From an uncultured Gammaproteobacteria bacterium (GTDB lineage Bacteria; Patescibacteriota; Patescibacteriia; 2-12-FULL-60-25), in contig CAYGDS010000001.1 in assembly GCA_964348595.1 (NCBI GenBank), positions 1 through 28,015 of the forward strand: a DNA stretch of 28,015 bases, in the 5' to 3' direction. Positions within the stretch are counted from its first letter, which is position 1; each line of letters begins with the position of its first letter. The notes under the pieces were generated by a model. That model did not search any database. It had not been told where the DNA came from and saw only the letters and a program-made list of their open reading frames with translations. The position numbers and the translations under genes were made by a program. This document shows, piece after piece, positions 1 to 27,776 of this stretch.

Positions 1-60
1 CTCTGGACGTTGATGGGACTCGGAATCGTAGCCCTTTGGAAATACATTTCGAAAAAATAG
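1..60 (+). CDS. 3' end of a gene entering from the left (hydrophobic C-terminus, probable membrane protein), partial
   Basis: Frame +1 reads LWTLMGLGIVALWKYISKK-TAG, a hydrophobic helix followed by Lys residues, with the stop at 58-60. Only 19 codons are visible. Confidence 0.5.
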   Translation, partial: LWTLMGLGIVALWKYISKK

Positions 61-16128: not shown

Positions 16129-16200
16129 AACGCGTAACGCATAGCGTGGAGCGCCAAACGCAAAACGTCAAACGGTTTGACTTCGAGCGTTACGCGTTAT
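16126..16200. repeat. Degenerate heptamer array with nested inverted repeats (rnhB/ruvX divergent region)
   Basis: CATAACG CGTAACG CATAGCG TGGAGCG CCAAACG CAAAACG TCAAACG. Perfect 14-bp inverted repeat 16127-16140/16187-16200 and inner palindrome GTCAAAC-G-GTTTGAC (16167-16181). Confidence 0.85.
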
Positions 16201-16246
16201 TTACCCGCCTCGTTGCATGAAATGCTTCGGGCGGGCACGATATGCC
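16187..16246 (+). repeat. 60-bp structured upstream element, copy A (before ruvX)
   Basis: 56/60 identical to 19342-19401. Hairpin CCCGCC-T-CG-TT-GCAT-GAA-ATGC-TT-CG-GGCGGG. Confidence 0.92.
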
Positions 16247-16248
16247 AT

Positions 16249-16656
16249 ATGCGTGTCATAGGAATAGATCATGGTTCGGCCAGGATAGGTATCGCGATGG
16301 GGGACACGGAATCCCGCGTGGCGAGTCCCTGGGACGTGCTGAAGCCCTCGAATCAGACGGAGGCCGTGCAGCTCGTTCACGAGCTCTGTCTCGGTGAAGG
16401 CGTCGACCGAGTCGTCGTCGGTATTCCGCGACCCCTTGCAGATCGTGCGCGCGAAACCGACCAGGCGAAGACGATCCGACGCTTCATGGAAGCGCTACGC
16501 GTCGAAGGCCTGGATGTCGTTGAGGAGGACGAGTCACTCTCAACTGCGCTCGCGGCAAAACTCGCGGCGGATGCCGGATCAAAGGGCAAGCGCGATGATC
16601 TGGCGGCAACGGCTATTCTTCAAACGTACTTGGATCGCATAACGCATAGCGCATAA
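16249..16656 (+). CDS. ruvX: Holliday junction resolvase-like / pre-16S rRNA nuclease YqgF
   Basis: MRVIGIDHGSARIGIAMGD, VVVGIP, EDESLST and DDLAATAILQTYLD. Start reassigned to ATG 16249. Confidence 0.93.
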   Translation: MRVIGIDHGSARIGIAMGDTESRVASPWDVLKPSNQTEAVQLVHELCLGEGVDRVVVGIPRPLADRARETDQAKTIRRFMEALRVEGLDVVEEDESLSTALAAKLAADAGSKGKRDDLAATAILQTYLDRITHSA

Positions 16657-16777
16657 CGCATAACCCGTAACATCGACCATTAACCCATGAACCCGTTCGA
16701 CTTTATGGACTTTCATCTTTCGACTTCTGACATCTGACATCTGAGTTCTGACATCTGGGTCATGGTTATCGGTTATG
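16636..16777. repeat. Degenerate heptamer array between ruvX and recO
   Basis: CGCATAA CGCATAG CGCATAA CGCATAA CCCGTAA ... CTGACAT CTGACAT CTGAGTT CTGACAT CTGGGTC ATGGTTATCGGTTATG. Confidence 0.85.
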
Positions 16778-17401
16778 TATCTCAGAGACACCGTCTTCAT
16801 CTTAAAAAGCGAACCGTTTCGTGAGCATGATAGCCGCGTAACGATGTATGGGCGTGTCCACGGAAAAATGTCGGCCGTTGCGCGCGGAAGTCGACGCATG
16901 TCCGCGAAACACCTTGGCCATCTAGAGCCGCTCACCGTCGCCGAGGTCATGATCGCGCACGGTCAATCGTTCGATAAGCTCGCGATTGCGCGGCGCGTTA
17001 CGGTTTCATCGCCTGATCTCGCTTCTCTCGCGCTCGCTGGTGCCTTTTCTTCATTGGTAGACTCTTTGGTCGGGTTTGGCGTTCCCGAGACGGCCCTGTT
17101 CGATCTTTTATTACAAACCAGGGATGTCTTCGTCGATGGCGGTATTCCGACACCGGAGCGCGCGCGGTTTTTGTACGCGGCAGCGACACTCAAATTACTC
17201 GACATCCTCGGATACGCGCCCGTGCTCGATGATAAATTATTCAAGTTCATGCGATCCGCGTCGCTCTACGATCTCAAGCGCTTAACGGCGCCCGTTGATC
17301 AACTGTCGACAGCAAGCGCGGTTGTCGAAGATGCGCTCACGCATACGCCGTTACACCGGGCGCCCCATGGGTCAGCGACGATCGTGGCATTGCTCTCTTG
17401 A
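16775..17401 (+). CDS. recO: DNA repair protein RecO
   Basis: N-terminal OB-fold pattern ILKSEPFREHDSRVTMY....GKMSAVARGSRR..AK..GHLEP and helical KLLDILGYAP. No Zn-finger Cys visible. Confidence 0.88.
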   Translation: MYLRDTVFILKSEPFREHDSRVTMYGRVHGKMSAVARGSRRMSAKHLGHLEPLTVAEVMIAHGQSFDKLAIARRVTVSSPDLASLALAGAFSSLVDSLVGFGVPETALFDLLLQTRDVFVDGGIPTPERARFLYAAATLKLLDILGYAPVLDDKLFKFMRSASLYDLKRLTAPVDQLSTASAVVEDALTHTPLHRAPHGSATIVALLS

Positions 17402-17505
17402 GCCCACTCTTGACCGACATTGACGACCTTGCGACGGCCCGATTGAATGAGGTTGCATTGGCTCGTACACCCCCACGTCGTTCGATCGACTCATAAAGGA
17501 TGTGC

Positions 17506-18333
17506 ATGCACAACGCTTCCTACGCCCGTCGTGAATCGTGCTCGGTGACCAGACTGCCGTTCGTTAACAGGGATTTTCGCGCCGCATCGGTCTTTCCGCT
17601 GCGCGAGACGAGTCCCCAGGCACGTCGTTCAACGACGAAGCCGACGAACACCACGCACGAAGTCCCGACGGGACCTACCCCCAACCTGGATGCGGCGCCT
17701 CCCGCACCCAGCCACGTGACGGCGCTCGAGCCCGAACCGGTGCCCGAGCCCTGTGAGGGGCAGTCCTACATCGACACGCTCGCGCCGGCACGATCGTACG
17801 AGGACGCCGTGCACGGGTATCGTCCCGAACCGAAGGAGAAGCGTCGCAAGCTCACGAAGCGCGCGCCGCAACTCTCCCTCGATGAACGGATCGAGCAGCG
17901 TTCGGTCAGGATCGCGAGTCCGATCATTGGACGCTACGTTCGGGAGATTCTCGAGATCGACAGCGCGCTCGGTGCCTACCGCGATCTCGAGGTGCGCCGC
18001 ATGCTCTCGCGTGACGATGCGATGTGCGATGGGCACTTCTTGCGCCAGCGCCTGGAGCGCGGTGACATCTCGATGCGCTGGCTGCGCGATCAGGTGCGCG
18101 ATCGCCTCGTGCGTCAGATGAATGATCTGATTGCGAACGGCTCCTGGGCCGAGGAAGACTCGGCAAATGGATATCGCGTGCGCATCGTGCATGGTCGACA
18201 CCGCTGGGTGTTCCTCCTCTGCGCGCGGTATGGCAACGTCGTGACGTTCTTCAGTGCCGCTGACTATGCGCGGTCCATGAGTCATCGCCGCGCCCGCCGT
18301 GTCGGATACTTGTACCGCCGAAGATTCAGCTAG
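17506..18333 (+). CDS. Hypothetical protein (Pro/Thr-rich disordered N-half, compact C-terminal domain)
   Basis: SD AAAGGA 5 nt before ATG 17506, GC-rich third positions and a terminator immediately downstream. Confidence 0.72.
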   Translation: MHNASYARRESCSVTRLPFVNRDFRAASVFPLRETSPQARRSTTKPTNTTHEVPTGPTPNLDAAPPAPSHVTALEPEPVPEPCEGQSYIDTLAPARSYEDAVHGYRPEPKEKRRKLTKRAPQLSLDERIEQRSVRIASPIIGRYVREILEIDSALGAYRDLEVRRMLSRDDAMCDGHFLRQRLERGDISMRWLRDQVRDRLVRQMNDLIANGSWAEEDSANGYRVRIVHGRHRWVFLLCARYGNVVTFFSAADYARSMSHRRARRVGYLYRRRFS

Positions 18334-18346
18334 ATCCATCTCTCTA

Positions 18347-18374
18347 GAGCCCTGTCGCATGTCGGCGGGGTTTT
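18347..18374 (+). terminator. Intrinsic terminator after the 17506 orphan
   Basis: GCCCTGTCG-CATGT-CGGCGGGGT followed by TTT, with several G-U pairs. Confidence 0.6.
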
Positions 18375-18391
18375 GCTTGTCATCACGCTCG

Positions 18392-18540
18392 CCCATAACC
18401 CACCCCTGCCCCTCCCTTCTACGAGGGATGGGTTCTTTCGTCCCAAGTCTCCCCTCGAAGAAGGGGAGATTTAGAGGGGTTATGGTCCCAGGGGAGCGGG
18501 AGGGGTTATGGTCCAAGGGGAGCAGGAGGGGTTCTGTCCC
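18392..18540. repeat. GC-skewed REP-like cluster: two hairpins plus a 26-bp tandem repeat
   Basis: TCCCT/AGGGA hairpin (18413-18428), AGTCTCCCCT-CGAAGA-AGGGGAGATT (18446-18471) and GAGGGGTTATGGTCCMAGGGGAGCRG x2 (18474-18525) plus a partial third copy. Confidence 0.8.
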
Positions 18541-18541
18541 A

Positions 18542-18570
18542 TTGACATTTAACAAATTTTATGCCATATT
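18542..18570 (+). promoter_or_regulatory. sigma70 promoter for the 18617 orphan
   Basis: TTGACA (18542-18547), 17 nt, CATATT with extended TG-C. Confidence 0.65.
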
Positions 18571-18579
18571 CCTCGTACA

Positions 18580-18594
18580 TCGAGCTTAGCTCGA
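18580..18594. repeat. 15-bp palindrome TCGAGCT-T-AGCTCGA (copy 3 of 3)
   Basis: Perfect 7-1-7 inverted repeat just downstream of the predicted transcription start. Confidence 0.85.
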
Positions 18595-18616
18595 CGACGC
18601 TCATTCGGAGGTCAAG

Positions 18617-19288
18617 ATGGCGTGGTGGATGTACGTTCTTGCAGGACTCGGGTATGTCCTCGTGGGCGACACCATCGCCCGGCTCAAGCTCAAGGTTCTC
18701 AAGAACGAGATCACCAATCCCGTGATCAGATACTTCTGCTTTCCGCTGAGCATGGCATTCTCTTCCAGCGCCATAGTCGACGGCAAAATACAGGCTCATC
18801 CGTCGAGGGATGGTTCTGAGAAGGACCCCGAGCATGGTGCGCTGGCCTGGGTATTTAATCAGCTGCTCATCCCGCACTCCCACACGGAGCACAACCCGAC
18901 TCGACTCATGGTCAACGAAGATAGTGCGCGAAAGTACATCATGCTTTCCTGGCTCCACTGGCCCCTGCATGTCGTGTGGCTCGCGCTAGCAAGCCTCTTC
19001 GCAACGCCCATAGCGATCGACAAGATCCTCCAGGGCCTACACTGGCTCATCGGCAAAGGGTTCTCGGGCGTGTACGACCTACTCGGCAGGCTTTGGACCA
19101 AGAAGCCGGCGAAGGTGCGGGTCGACGAGAAAGTCGTCGAGGAGGCCGAGAGTCATGAAGCCAAGGTCCGTCGCGAGATGGATGAGGCAAGAGACAAGCT
19201 CGCCGAGCTCAAGGGAGAGCTCGAGGAAATCGAGAAGAAGAAGGGGCCCTACGGCAGGGGCAACGCGGAACAACAGCTGAAGAACTGA
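18617..19288 (+). CDS. Hypothetical membrane protein with C-terminal coiled coil
   Basis: SD GGAGG 5 nt upstream. Hydrophobic segments near the N-terminus and residues ~107-145, then a charged heptad-like tail (EARDKLAELKGELEEIEKK). Confidence 0.82.
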   Translation: MAWWMYVLAGLGYVLVGDTIARLKLKVLKNEITNPVIRYFCFPLSMAFSSSAIVDGKIQAHPSRDGSEKDPEHGALAWVFNQLLIPHSHTEHNPTRLMVNEDSARKYIMLSWLHWPLHVVWLALASLFATPIAIDKILQGLHWLIGKGFSGVYDLLGRLWTKKPAKVRVDEKVVEEAESHEAKVRREMDEARDKLAELKGELEEIEKKKGPYGRGNAEQQLKN

Positions 19289-19295
19289 ACGACAC

Positions 19296-19324
19296 GCCCG
19301 CACGGATCACTCCGGCGGGCTTTT
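19296..19324 (+). terminator. Intrinsic terminator after the 18617 orphan
   Basis: GCCCGC-A-CGGA-TCAC-TCCG-GCGGGC-TTTT. Confidence 0.8.
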
Positions 19325-19341
19325 GCATACCTTGACGTTAT

Positions 19342-19401
19342 GCGTTACGCGATATTTACCCGCCTAGTTGCATGAAATGCTTCTGGCGGGCACGATACGC
19401 C
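19342..19401 (+). repeat. 60-bp structured upstream element, copy B (before asnS)
   Basis: 56/60 identical to 16187-16246. Hairpin CCCGCC-T-AG-TT-GCAT-GAA-ATGC-TT-CT-GGCGGG. Confidence 0.92.
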
Positions 19402-19407
19402 TCATCT

Positions 19408-20700
19408 ATGGATGTCTTCATCAAGCAATTTCCGGAGCACGTCGGCCAAGCGGTGACCATCAAAGGATGGGCATACAACGTGCGTTCGAGCGGATCGATC
19501 GCGTTTTTGCAAATCCGCGATGGTAGTGGTTTTACGCAAGCTGTGATCGTGAAGACCGGCGTCGACGAGGCGAGTTGGACAGCGGCGACGGAGGCGACCA
19601 TCGAGTCGTCGGTGATCGTGACCGGCACGGTATCCAAACATCCTAAGCAAGAAGGCGTGTTTGAGTTGCAGGCGACGCGCGTCGAGCTCGTGCAGAAGGC
19701 GGAGGAGTTTCCGATTGGTAAAAAAGAGCATGGACCGGATTTCCTGCTCGATCAACGTCATTTGTGGCTCCGTGCACCGACGCAATGGGCGATACAGCGT
19801 GTGAGGAACGAAATCATCAACGCCACGTATCGCTGGATGTCGGATCACGGGTATACCAAAATCGACTCGCCGATCTTCACGCCGAGCGCGTGCGAAGGAA
19901 CGACGGATTTGTTCGAGGTCGATTATTTCGGTGAGCGGAAGGCGTACCTCACGCAATCCGGACAGCTGTATCTCGAGGCGGCGATCGCATCCGTTGGTCG
20001 ATGCTTCGATTTCGGACCGGTGTTCCGTGCGGAAAAATCCAAGACGCGACGCCATCTTACAGAATTCTGGATGATGGATGCGGAGGCGGCATTCGTTGAT
20101 CACGAAGAGAACTTGAAGATTCAAGAGGCGCTTGTGTGTTTCATCGTGGAACAAGTGCTGAAGAACTGTCAGCCGGAACTGAAGATTCTCGAGCGTGATC
20201 AGGAGCCGCTCAAAAAAGTGCAGGCGCCATTCATCCGCATGACGCATGCGGAGGCGATTGCGTGGTTGCGCGAACACGGTTCCGACATCGGCGACATGGA
20301 CGATCTTGGCGCGGATGATGAGACGCTGCTCACGAAGGCGCATGAGAAGCCGATCTTTGTTGAGAAATATCCAGCGGCGGTGAAGGCGTTTTATATGAAA
20401 CGCGATCCGTCTGATCCGACGCGCGTGTTGAATGCGGACTTACTTGCGCCGGAAGGATACGGAGAAATCATCGGCGGTTCGCAGCGTGAGGATGATTACG
20501 AAAAATTGCTCGCACGCATCCGCGATCACAAGCTCCCGGAGGCAGCGTTCCAATGGTATCTCGACTTGCGTCGTTACGGTTCAGTTCCACATTCCGGGTT
20601 TGGCTATGGCCTTGAACGTCTCACGACGTGGATTTGCGGCATCCATCATGTGCGTGAGACAATTCCATTTCCGCGATTGATTAATCGTTTGGAGCCATAA
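19408..20700 (+). CDS. asnS: Asparagine--tRNA ligase
   Basis: V.IKGW..NVRSSGSIAFLQIRDGSG, RHLWLR, YLTQSGQLYLE, FGPVFRAEKSKTRRHLTEFWM, GEIIGGSQRE and PHSGFGYGLER. Start reassigned to ATG 19408. Confidence 0.96.
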   Translation: MDVFIKQFPEHVGQAVTIKGWAYNVRSSGSIAFLQIRDGSGFTQAVIVKTGVDEASWTAATEATIESSVIVTGTVSKHPKQEGVFELQATRVELVQKAEEFPIGKKEHGPDFLLDQRHLWLRAPTQWAIQRVRNEIINATYRWMSDHGYTKIDSPIFTPSACEGTTDLFEVDYFGERKAYLTQSGQLYLEAAIASVGRCFDFGPVFRAEKSKTRRHLTEFWMMDAEAAFVDHEENLKIQEALVCFIVEQVLKNCQPELKILERDQEPLKKVQAPFIRMTHAEAIAWLREHGSDIGDMDDLGADDETLLTKAHEKPIFVEKYPAAVKAFYMKRDPSDPTRVLNADLLAPEGYGEIIGGSQREDDYEKLLARIRDHKLPEAAFQWYLDLRRYGSVPHSGFGYGLERLTTWICGIHHVRETIPFPRLINRLEP

Positions 20701-23003: not shown

Positions 23004-24443
23004 ATGACAAGAACGACGGCTAAGGACACGATCTCAAAGGTCGGCGAGCGGGTGGATTTGATGGGCTGGGTCCATGTCCGGCGCGACATGGGAAAAATCG
23101 CCTTTATCGATCTCCGGGATCGCTCCGGCATTGTTCAGGTCGTTCTGGTCCCATCCGAACTCGATGCGGCATCACAAGAAGTCCTGAAGGACCTCCGTTC
23201 AGAATATTGCGTGCGTGTCTCTGGCCTCGTCCAGGAGCGCGGCAAGAAACAACAGAATCCTGCTTTGCCGACGGGTATGGTGGAGGTGCTTGCAAAGGAG
23301 ATCGTTGTCTTGAACCCGTCGAAGACGCCGCCGTTTGAGCTCTCAGACACGTCTGCGATCAACGAGGAACTTCGTCTCAAGTATCGATACCTCGACTTGC
23401 GGAGTCCGCGCATGCTCAAGAATCTCGTGCTGCGAGACAAGGTCATCACCTTTTTCCGCGGCTATCTCCATACACAGGATTTTCTCGAGGTCGAAACGCC
23501 GATTCTGACCAAGGGCACACCGGAGGGCGCGCGTGAGTTCCTCGTGCCATCACGACAACACCCGGGGAAATTCTACGTTCTCCCGCAGTCGCCGCAGCAA
23601 TTTAAACAATTATTGATGGTCGGCGGCGTGGAGAAATATTTCCAAATTGCGCGCTGCTTCCGAGACGAAGATCAGCGTGGTGATCGCCAACCGGAGTTTA
23701 CGCAGCTCGATCTCGAGATGTCATTTGTCGAGCAGGAAGATGTGTTGCGATTGATCGAGAAGATGATGATCGATCTTGTGAAAACGGTTTCTCCTGAAAA
23801 ACGCATTCAGCAAGTTCCGTTTCCCCGTCTCTCGTACAATGAGGCGATGGAGAAGTACGGCTCAGACAAGCCGGATCTGCGTGAAGATAAAAACGATCCG
23901 AATCTTCTCGCATTCTGTTGGGTTGTCGACTTTCCGTTTTTCGAGAAAACCGAGGATGGTTCTTGGACCTTCAGTCACAACCCGTTCTCCGCTCCAAAGC
24001 CAGAACACATGGATTGGCTTCTTACCAAAAAGAACATCGGCGAGATCCTTACGACGCAGTACGATATCGTGCTGAACGGATTCGAAGCGGGTGGAGGAAG
24101 CATTCGTAATCACCGTCCGGAGGCGCTGCGTGCAGTGTTCGAGATTCTTGGATTCAAGGACGAAGAAATCGACGCGCAATTCGGTCACATGCTGGAGGCC
24201 TTCTCGTTCGGCGCACCTCCACATGGTGGCATCGCTCCTGGGATCGATCGCATTGTGATGATTCTCGCCAACGAGCCGAATATTCGCGAAGTCATCCCGA
24301 TCCCGAAAACGGGTGATGCGCGTGATGTCATGATGGGAGCTCCGTCGGAAGTGCCAGATAAGAGGTTGGATGAGGCGCATATCAGCATAAATCAAAAGTC
24401 GAAAGTCGAAAGTCGAAAGTCAATACAAAAGCGCAAAACGTAA
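23004..24443 (+). CDS. aspS: Aspartate--tRNA ligase (bacterial type, GAD domain absent)
   Basis: GWVHVRRDMG..FIDLRD, RLKYRYLDLR, TPEGAREFLVPSR, LPQSPQQFKQLLM, CFRDED.R.DRQPEFTQLD and PPHGGIAPGIDR. KPDLR joins directly to ..AFCWVVDFP. Confidence 0.96.
   Translation: MTRTTAKDTISKVGERVDLMGWVHVRRDMGKIAFIDLRDRSGIVQVVLVPSELDAASQEVLKDLRSEYCVRVSGLVQERGKKQQNPALPTGMVEVLAKEIVVLNPSKTPPFELSDTSAINEELRLKYRYLDLRSPRMLKNLVLRDKVITFFRGYLHTQDFLEVETPILTKGTPEGAREFLVPSRQHPGKFYVLPQSPQQFKQLLMVGGVEKYFQIARCFRDEDQRGDRQPEFTQLDLEMSFVEQEDVLRLIEKMMIDLVKTVSPEKRIQQVPFPRLSYNEAMEKYGSDKPDLREDKNDPNLLAFCWVVDFPFFEKTEDGSWTFSHNPFSAPKPEHMDWLLTKKNIGEILTTQYDIVLNGFEAGGGSIRNHRPEALRAVFEILGFKDEEIDAQFGHMLEAFSFGAPPHGGIAPGIDRIVMILANEPNIREVIPIPKTGDARDVMMGAPSEVPDKRLDEAHISINQKSKVESRKSIQKRKT
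24394..24421 (+). repeat. Heptamer tandem repeat (GAAAGTC)n inside the aspS 3' end
   Basis: AAAAGTC GAAAGTC GAAAGTC GAAAGTC, with degenerate units continuing to about 24456. Confidence 0.85.
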
Positions 24444-27688: not shown

Positions 27689-27776
27689 GATGTCAGAACC
27701 CAGATGTCAGATGTCAGAAGTAGGGACTTGAATGTGTTCGTTTCTGACATCTCGGATCTAGGATCTGACATCTCGG
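27689..27776. repeat. Bipartite heptamer array (CAGATGT units, then their complement) before tRNA-Met
   Basis: GATGTCAGAACCCAGATGTCAGATGTCAGAAGT (27689-27721), then TCTGACATCTCGG twice (27743-27755, 27764-27776). Confidence 0.85.

Follow-up and report, generated by a model that had tools for sequence, protein, structure and literature searches.

Two copies of a 60-bp repeat stand directly upstream of ruvX and asnS in a 28,015-nucleotide (nt) stretch of DNA from an uncultured member of the Patescibacteria, the whole of which is referred to here as the window. The element is real and conserved, and it is more likely to be promoter DNA than a regulatory RNA. We lean towards reading it as a promoter cassette of ~70 nt whose -35 box comes from a 36-nt palindromic insert and from which leaderless or short-leader mRNAs would be made. 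An earlier reading of the window from its letters alone (the sequence-only reading) had offered three interpretations: a portable promoter/operator cassette, a cis-regulatory RNA, and a unit akin to repetitive extragenic palindromes (REPs) or miniature inverted-repeat transposable elements (MITEs). The first of these fits best, as TTGCAT and CACGAT, 17 nt apart, occupy the -35/-10 position of orthologous promoters that have no hairpin, and as the promoter class to which they belong is backed by spacing statistics. The source genome (G000) measures 1.14 Mb with 56.9% GC in an assembly that is 93% complete, and all 400 sampled genomes of its class fall between 0.6 and 1.6 Mb.

The two copies, at 16187-16246 (copy A) and 19342-19401 (copy B), are identical at 56 of 60 positions, with mismatches at offsets 11, 25, 43 and 57. 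Both contain the bulged hairpin CCCGCC-T-NG-TT-GCAT-GAA-ATGC-TT-CN-GGCGGG (16204-16235 in A, 19359-19390 in B), and the only two differences within it are pairing partners: C16211 and G16229 in copy A, A19366 and T19384 in copy B. The sequence-only reading had described the match, the fold and the partnered differences, and direct reading together with RNAfold bears them out; the bulged hairpin is both the minimum free energy (MFE) and the centroid structure, at -20.0 kcal/mol for A and -18.5 kcal/mol for B (z = -2.7 and -2.8). The hairpin pattern matches twice in the window, against 0.00 matches expected from 100 shuffles. TTGAC begins 10 nt 5′ of each 60-mer (16177 in A, 19332 in B), TTGCAT-17-CACGAT is present in both copies, and the repeats end 2 nt before the ATG of ruvX (16249) and 6 nt before that of asnS (19408), again as had been described. 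Orthologue N-termini confirm both starts (MRVIGIDHGS versus MRLLGLDYGS for RuvX; MDVFIKQF versus MDVFIKDF for the asnS product). An asnS start at the in-frame ATG at 19372, in the hairpin loop, was rejected, as the orthologues begin MDVFIK.

A search for sequencing runs that contain the locus returned four DNA runs and no RNA run. An assembly artefact is ruled out because Logan contigs from two independent DNA runs cover each copy together with its unique flanks, with zero differences. The suggestion that the direct repeats might recombine finds no echo in the four runs, which contain no contig joining copies A and B in a deletion form.

The 60-mer opens with two units (GCGTTAC GCGTTAT, 14 nt) of the heptamer tandem repeat that is common in the intergenic DNA of this genome, and the part specific to the pair is only ~46 nt long: TTTA, the hairpin and CACGATAYGCC. 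When the 36 nt of TTTA plus hairpin are taken out, the heptamer register is restored in both copies, as read from the sequence. Parsed in the same way, the two loci contain the following features.

16143-16171, minus strand: probable divergent rnhB promoter of the TTGACN-17-CANNNT class (TTGACG at 16166-16171, 17 nt, CACGCT at 16143-16148).
16177-16182, plus strand: TTGACT upstream of copy A, -35-like, now 53 nt from the -10 and followed by exactly 17 nt and then TTTA.
16183-16199, plus strand: former 17-nt spacer of copy A, holding GCGTTAC-type heptamer units.
16200-16235, plus strand: 36-nt insert of copy A, TTTA followed by the 32-nt bulged hairpin.
16213-16218, plus strand: TTGCAT within the hairpin, proposed -35 of the ruvX promoter, 17 nt 5′ of CACGAT and invariant in 7/7 copies.
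16236-16241, plus strand: CACGAT, proposed -10 of ruvX, 7 nt from the ATG, matching the -10 position in hairpin-less ruvX orthologues.
16249-16656, plus strand: ruvX, first gene of ruvX-recO (Pfam PF03652, E = 8e-27), with its start confirmed by orthologues.
19296-19324, plus strand: intrinsic terminator (GC stem plus TTTT) of the upstream orphan gene.
19323-19328, plus strand: TTGCAT right after the terminator T-run, a probable relic of the ancestral asnS -35.
19332-19337, plus strand: TTGACG upstream of copy B.
19338-19354, plus strand: former 17-nt spacer of copy B, with heptamer units.
19355-19390, plus strand: 36-nt insert of copy B, TTTA plus a hairpin whose sequence is that of the family consensus and of copy D (below).
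19368-19373, plus strand: TTGCAT, proposed -35 of the asnS promoter.
19391-19396, plus strand: CACGAT, proposed -10 of asnS, 11 nt from the ATG.
19408-20700, plus strand: gene for an asnS-type class II aminoacyl-tRNA synthetase (Pfam PF00152 and PF01336), 83-86% identical to orthologues and with the same N-terminus.

Pfam confirms RuvX, RecO and the class II aminoacyl-tRNA synthetase, and the two genes between recO and asnS match no Pfam family. The rnhB promoter is clear of the hairpin, and the hairpin is therefore not transcribed from it.

Further copies were sought by a pattern scan of all species-representative genomes, by a mismatch-tolerant pattern search of the 400 class genomes and with a covariance model (R1) run on the family's full set of 127 genomes. 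These searches yield seven close copies (57-73 bits) in four genomes, which belong to two genera of one Patescibacteria family; only copies A and B are found in G000, and the other three genomes hold one or two each. The genome and downstream gene of each copy are as follows.

Copy A: G000, ruvX.
Copy B: G000, asnS.
Copy C: G020, EVE-domain gene.
Copy D: G507, EVE-domain gene.
Copy E: G507, small Phd-like open reading frame (ORF).
Copy F: G508, EVE-domain gene.
Copy G: G508, ABC-F ATPase gene.

The copies from the other genus came from the pattern and covariance-model searches; blastn of an 83-mer against 40 relatives returned chance-level matches only. A covariance-model search at order level covered the same 127 genomes and added nothing. 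Among metagenome contigs, a RecO-based search found no related loci, and a DNA pattern scan found only two Hainich H41 contigs, corresponding to copies D and E.

Apart from the three orthologous EVE-domain genes, the genes downstream of the seven copies are unrelated to one another, and all seven copies are oriented with the downstream gene, with 13-17 nt between the end of the hairpin and a validated ATG. The non-random placement relative to start codons that the sequence-only reading expected of a selected structure thus holds strictly for the seven close copies, and only diverged relatives lie elsewhere. A scripted parse gives one layout for copies A, B, C, E, F and G: TTGACN, 17 nt, TTTA, the 32-nt hairpin, CANNNT, 7-11 nt and ATG, with the exceptions that the upstream box is TCGACG in copy F and that 18 nt replace 17 in copy C. 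Both the 17-nt segment and the sequence 3′ of the hairpin are heptamer-array DNA. In copy D, the coding sequence of miaA runs into the hairpin and has its stop codon inside it; the upstream TTGACN is missing, and the hairpin and the following hexamer are intact, as they are beside the altered box of copy F. All seven copies agree at TTGCAT, throughout the hairpin's 3′ half and at the C, A and T of the post-hairpin hexamer, and substitutions are concentrated in the 5′ arm. Copies B and D, from different genera, are identical at 32/32 hairpin nucleotides, with flanks that are only ~65% alike.

In genomes of the genus g21, orthologous sites that have no hairpin carry ordinary promoters.

EVE-domain gene (G318, G506): TTGACG-17-CATGCT-9/10-ATG.
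asnS (G506, G508, G236): TTGCMT-17-TATNCT-9..11-ATG.
ruvX (G507): TTGCTA-17-GATACT-7-ATG.
ruvX (G236, G506): CAAGCT or CAAGAT, then 6 nt to ATG.

These promoters consist of a -35, 17 nt, a -10 and 6-11 nt to the ATG. In ruvX, asnS and the EVE-domain gene alike, the post-hairpin hexamer coincides with the orthologous -10 position; hairpin positions 10-32 occupy the place of the orthologous -35 and 17-nt spacer, with TTGCAT (positions 10-15) as the -35; and the former TTGACN and its spacer are displaced 36 nt further upstream. The filled EVE sites (copies C and F) read TTGACG or TCGACG, 17-18 nt, TTTA, hairpin and CAAGCT, the hexamer standing 7..9 nt from the ATG, versus CATGCT at the empty sites. 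Filled and empty sites differ as expected of a hybrid promoter, in that the insert appears to bring the -35 box; the difference may reflect either gain or loss of the insert. TTGCAT lies 17 nt upstream of the hexamer in every copy. In all seven the hexamer resembles a -10 in its second-position A and sixth-position T, and it ends 7-12 nt before the start: CACGAT ends at -8 in ruvX and -12 in asnS, and the remaining five hexamers do so at -8 to -11.

Relics of the older arrangement may persist at asnS. The TTGCAT at 19323-19328 is placed relative to the terminator like the TTGCAT or TTGCCT of the asnS promoters of G508, G506 and G236, and in G236 TATGCT stands 11 nt before the ATG, with the same CATCT directly before the ATG as in G000. 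The asnS product is 83-86% identical between G000 and the genus g21, and RuvX, encoded 3 kb away, only 51-54%. The two genes lie within 3.2 kb of each other in all four g21 genomes that have both (G020, G506, G508 and G236). G507 is without this asnS and retains only a 30%-identical paralogue.

Genome statistics place the cassette within a wider promoter class. Among 756 crude gene calls of G000, TANNNT ends 7 nt before the ATG in 61, against a background of ~7 and often with a TGN extension, and it ends at -8 to -10 in ~30 genes each; a Shine-Dalgarno signal is found in about one-fifth of the genes of this genome. This pattern is a genome-wide signature of leaderless or near-leaderless mRNAs. 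For CANNNT hexamers ending at -7 to -12, TTG is found at 17-nt spacing in 14 of 76 cases, versus 0-4 at other spacings and 0 at 17 nt in an intragenic control; GANNNT and AANNNT have no such peak. TTGACN and CANNNT are separated by 17 nt at 64 places in the genome, versus 27 for 16 nt and 17 for 18 nt. The statistics support a second -10 class in G000, CANNNT, which would not be used without a TTG box 17 nt upstream. A random 32-nt insert puts TTG at the 17-nt position only ~2% of the time.

From these observations we infer that TTGCAT and CANNNT form an active promoter, and its origin can be pictured as follows. An insert of 36 nt (TTTA plus the 32-nt imperfect palindrome) would have come to lie exactly between the 17-nt spacer and the -10 of a TTGACN-17-CANNNT promoter, shifting the old -35 36 nt upstream and providing a new one, TTGCAT, 17 nt before CANNNT. 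RNA polymerase would start ~7 nt past the -10, making the ruvX mRNA leaderless and giving asnS a leader of ~4 nt. The hairpin would serve as promoter DNA (upstream flank, -35 and spacer) and would not be transcribed, because TTGCAT/CACGAT, if it is a promoter, starts transcription downstream of it. The cassette, or the insert with some flank, probably spread as copies from one promoter to another, through recombination or gene conversion, for which the heptamer-array flanks could provide homology. The internal TTGCAT/CANNNT pair persists where the upstream box is lost (copy D) or mutated (copy F). An active promoter formed by the upstream TTGACN with TATTTA or TTTACC is unlikely, as these have the wrong spacing or lack the A2 and T6 of a -10, and as the box is dispensable in copies D and F.

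Several points weigh against the promoter reading. The proposed promoter matches the Escherichia coli consensus at only 3/6 plus 3/6 positions (6/12) and has no TG extension, and a promoter scan based on it calls nothing at copy A or B. In copy B the end of the -10 lies 12 nt from the ATG, on the margin of the enriched range. Nor does a plain promoter account for the conservation of the spacer and of the complementary 5′ arm from one genus to the other, or for the exact 17-nt distance kept between TTGACN and TTTA in 5/7 copies. The pair that appears as C-G, A-T and G-C, together with four G.T cells that are compatible with wobble pairing in the sense orientation only, hints at selection on nucleic-acid pairing. 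The conserved dyad symmetry would be a putative operator or structural signal. It could be bound by a dimeric or hairpin-binding protein, act as a structure in read-through RNA (copies D and E) or be inherited from a mobile palindrome.

The last of these options draws on a set of diverged relatives. Covariance-model matches of lower score (20-34 bits) include hairpins of 28-35 nt, mostly 32 nt, with the same GC clamp and bulge and a GCGC inner stem. One, on contig C14 of G020, matches the consensus at 25/32 positions, and every difference keeps or creates a pair. In five genomes, truncated tRNA copies situated 100-150 nt upstream of intact tRNA genes break off at the D-loop GGTA, and such hairpins, in some genomes as adjacent pairs, come directly after it; an Rfam search of these loci at E<=0.1 returns nothing but tRNAs and sub-threshold noise.

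Truncated-tRNA and hairpin loci: G000:C112:1836-2091; L049 (G004:C3); L047 (G506:C18); L046 (G003:C62); L057 (G020:C14).

The truncated copies consist of the leader and the first 21 nt of the tRNA as far as the D-loop GGTA, followed by one or two CCCGCC..GGCGGG hairpins, and belong to no Rfam family. Ahead of tRNA-Ala in G000 lies an insert of ~110 nt with a 44-nt direct repeat on either side.

Two relatives touch coding sequence. A hairpin-like 32-mer at G000:C53:91-122 (L003), identical to copy A at 25/32 positions, is found on the antisense strand within the part of an ABC-F ATPase gene that encodes the C-terminal linker, and coincides with ~10-11 residues that are missing from four orthologues, in an alignment that passes through a poorly conserved linker. 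It is a probable diverged relative of the hairpin: with 7/32 mismatches, ~0.001-0.01 such matches would be expected by chance in the genome, on a rough estimate. The orthologous ABC-F gene of G508 instead has hairpin copy G in its promoter. The other relative is found in the tail of a NUDIX-like ORF in G020. Further GC-clamped hairpins are embedded in heptamer arrays. Together these loci suggest a dispersed REP- or Rickettsia palindromic element (RPE)-like family of hairpins, though copy numbers are tiny.

On this basis the promoter reading may be extended, tentatively and at rather long odds, to a whole family. Mini-elements of ~32-36 nt, GC-clamped and bulged, would have spread without a resident transposase, perhaps by gene conversion via heptamer arrays, into promoters, tRNA copies and coding tails. 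One subfamily would then have been domesticated as a promoter-rewiring module at the spacer/-10 junction, retiring the old -35 and installing its own, with a putative dyad or hairpin-factor site.

A related explanation, which we consider unlikely, dispenses with function: the element would be a mobile palindrome of REP or RPE type, and its promoter position would reflect a target preference for heptamer arrays or TTAC-like sites. The relatives in tRNA copies (sometimes paired), in the ABC-F linker and NUDIX-like tail and inside heptamer arrays favour it, as do the 7-mers that flank TTTA plus hairpin, which are direct repeats at 5-7/7 positions, and a rearrangement in copy D whose breakpoint lies exactly at the 5′ foot of the hairpin. 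Tandem heptamer arrays confound the flanking repeats, however, and make them non-diagnostic. Close copies number only two per genome and seven in 127 family genomes, and their shared promoter junction and orientation (7/7) would require selection or copying of the whole cassette. No autonomous element related to the insert was found. A Y1/RAYT transposase (PF01797) is absent from G000, G020, G507 and G506, and the two matches in G508 have no hairpin nearby; such an enzyme was rejected as the mobiliser, being absent from three of the four host genomes. One of these G508 genes (L082, G508:C3:24699-25355, minus strand) is a RAYT/IS200-like Y1 transposase ORF with the motifs HVHGIV and YYERVIR. 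The REP/MITE-like interpretation therefore keeps some value as an account of origin, in that diverged relatives occur in other contexts, and fails on copy number and on a cognate transposase.

Next in rank, and doubtful, is an RNA hairpin in the 5′ untranslated region. Transcription would start at the upstream TTGACN, and the hairpin would lie at or near the 5′ end of the mRNA as a stabiliser or a regulator-binding site. The fold is stable and is the MFE structure in 6/7 copies (copy F loses the two outermost pairs), the AUG follows 13-17 nt downstream without a Shine-Dalgarno sequence, and the distance to TTGACN is fixed in 5/7 copies. Over seven sequences and 12 pairs, 97.6% of cells are paired, versus 36-49% with slid partners, with two cells unpaired. 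Three pairs vary by G.U wobble, in the sense orientation only, and the diverged relatives differ only by pair-preserving changes. At pair 8/26, four copies have A-U, one C-G and one G-C. It is nevertheless the only pair changed on both sides, and 29 of 500 shuffles attain the covariation score of 0.159, which makes the support for the hairpin from covariation no more than suggestive, as the sequence-only reading had cautioned for its single pair. The wobble bias could simply reflect C-to-T mutation in the C-rich arm. The hexamer 17 nt after TTGACN, TTTACC or TTTATC, has neither A2 nor T6, and transcription begun from it would set out inside the 5′ arm and leave a shortened stem; a good TTGACN is missing from copies D and F; and the neighbouring promoter upstream of copy A is divergent, which precludes read-through. 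No Rfam family matches the element, at gathering score within the window or, even at E<=1, at the five loci of copies A-E, which agrees with the earlier remark that there is no T-box motif. The cis-regulatory RNA proposal is thus left unsupported, on Rfam, on the covariation score, on the want of a usable -10 after the upstream box and, if TTGCAT/CACGAT is the promoter, on a transcript that starts past the hairpin.

A terminator or insulator that halts read-through ahead of a leaderless promoter is highly improbable: the stem is GC-rich and stable, and the miaA stop lies within copy D and an ABC transporter gene precedes copy E, with no other terminator near either, but no T-run follows the stem in any copy (tails CACGAT.. 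and CAAGCT..; the absence of a U-tract had been remarked earlier), ordinary terminators of these genomes carry T-runs, a terminator scan finds nothing at A or B, copies A and C stand between divergent genes, where nothing needs terminating, and the canonical terminator 35 nt upstream of copy B means that its hairpin is not needed for this purpose. In sum, the element is in no Rfam family, is not a terminator, and falls short of REP elements in copy number and transposase.

The heptamer arrays that form the setting of the promoter cassette are a general feature of G000, where GCGYTAY occurs in dozens of intergenic arrays. Tandem Repeats Finder reports 252 period-7 arrays, versus 34 of period 6 and 49 of period 8; the unit families include TCTGACA (51 arrays), GAGTAGT (28), GCGTTAC-like units (~33) and CATCGCT (13).

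Period-7 arrays in the window: 16152-16174, 16636-16671, 16722-16757, 24395-24421 and 27689-27718.

Many heptamer arrays form the -35/-10 spacer of promoters. Many loose ends at 16723-16757 show that other organisms of the metagenome have the heptamer repeats too. Elsewhere in the window, a 26-nt tandem repeat at 18474-18541, with 2.7 copies matching at 88%, sits between the two orphan genes and overlaps a minus-strand ORF (17629-18555). Two ORF-less arrays in G000, G000:C8:11598-15300 (~17 units) and G000:C111:1773-3321 (~10 units), have units 130-200 nt apart in the order TTGTCAAT-like box, ATAGAACAG, CCCC-[variable stem-loop]-GGGG, CTCGGTAG and a unique stretch of ~100 nt; the arrays could represent small transcription units in tandem.

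Promoters and regulation in the Patescibacteria (Candidate Phyla Radiation, CPR) are almost unstudied because the organisms are uncultured, and this locus supplies a concrete, conserved promoter module. Sequence evidence on a genome scale indicates that much of the transcription of G000 is leaderless or nearly so, with a -35-dependent CANNNT class. Within this setting, a tiny palindromic insert appears to replace the -35 of core genes (ruvX-recO and asnS) and to persist across genera. Should the palindrome be an operator, the genes behind it would form a small regulon in a genome that has very few regulators; should it be a mobile hairpin, it would exemplify the rewiring of promoters in a 1-Mb genome without insertion sequence (IS) elements. 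The interest of the element lies mostly in what it says about patescibacterial promoters and small repeats, and it is not a new riboswitch-like RNA.

Comparison with known systems places the element between several of them. The leaderless mRNAs of Actinobacteria and Deinococcus have promoters with TANNNT 6-7 nt before the start codon. The promoters described here are similar in having a -10 6-11 nt before the ATG, no Shine-Dalgarno sequence and a genome-wide signal; they differ in lineage, in a second -10 class that begins with C and needs TTG at 17 nt, and in a -35 and spacer that lie inside a conserved palindrome. As in palindromic operators, the dyad symmetry spans the -35 and spacer, and the spacer is conserved beyond what a promoter needs; unlike in classical operators, the palindrome is 32 bp long with a one-base asymmetry (the bulge), which is long for a single dimer site, and the downstream genes have no obvious common function. 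RPEs are numerous elements of 100-150 bp that lie in intergenic regions, in RNA genes or in frame in protein genes. The hairpins resemble them as small palindromic repeats of a reduced genome in intergenic, RNA-gene and coding sites, and differ in being few and only ~32-36 nt long, the coding-region case being one alignment through a poorly conserved linker.

Heptamer tandem repeats are known from cyanobacteria, as short tandemly repeated repetitive (STRR) sequences, and from Beggiatoaceae, as TAACTGA repeats (PMC4679880). The element is likewise flanked by tandem arrays of 7-nt units, of which the intergenic DNA has a strong excess, although with other unit sequences and in another phylum, and here the arrays form the promoter spacer. 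REPs and the related REPINs (PMC3116915, PMC3337134) share with the element a short, extragenic, GC-rich, imperfect bulged palindrome (here 32 nt with a 6-bp GC clamp and an internal loop) present at several loci, with some relatives paired. They occur, however, in tens to hundreds of copies rather than two close copies per genome, and mostly downstream of genes, whereas this element is fixed in place and orientation upstream of start codons and the RAYT gene is absent from 3/4 host genomes.

IS elements such as IS26 and IS257, which carry outward-facing -35 boxes, create hybrid promoters (PMC7986276). Unlike these, the insert described here is only 36 nt long, has no transposase, no IS-type terminal inverted repeats and no clear target duplication, and is conserved at orthologous sites across species rather than recently acquired. 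As in IS hybrid promoters, it sets a TTG-type -35 17 nt from a resident -10 and thereby defines the promoter of the adjacent gene. By analogy, the element would work like an insertion-derived hybrid promoter that carries an operator-like palindrome.

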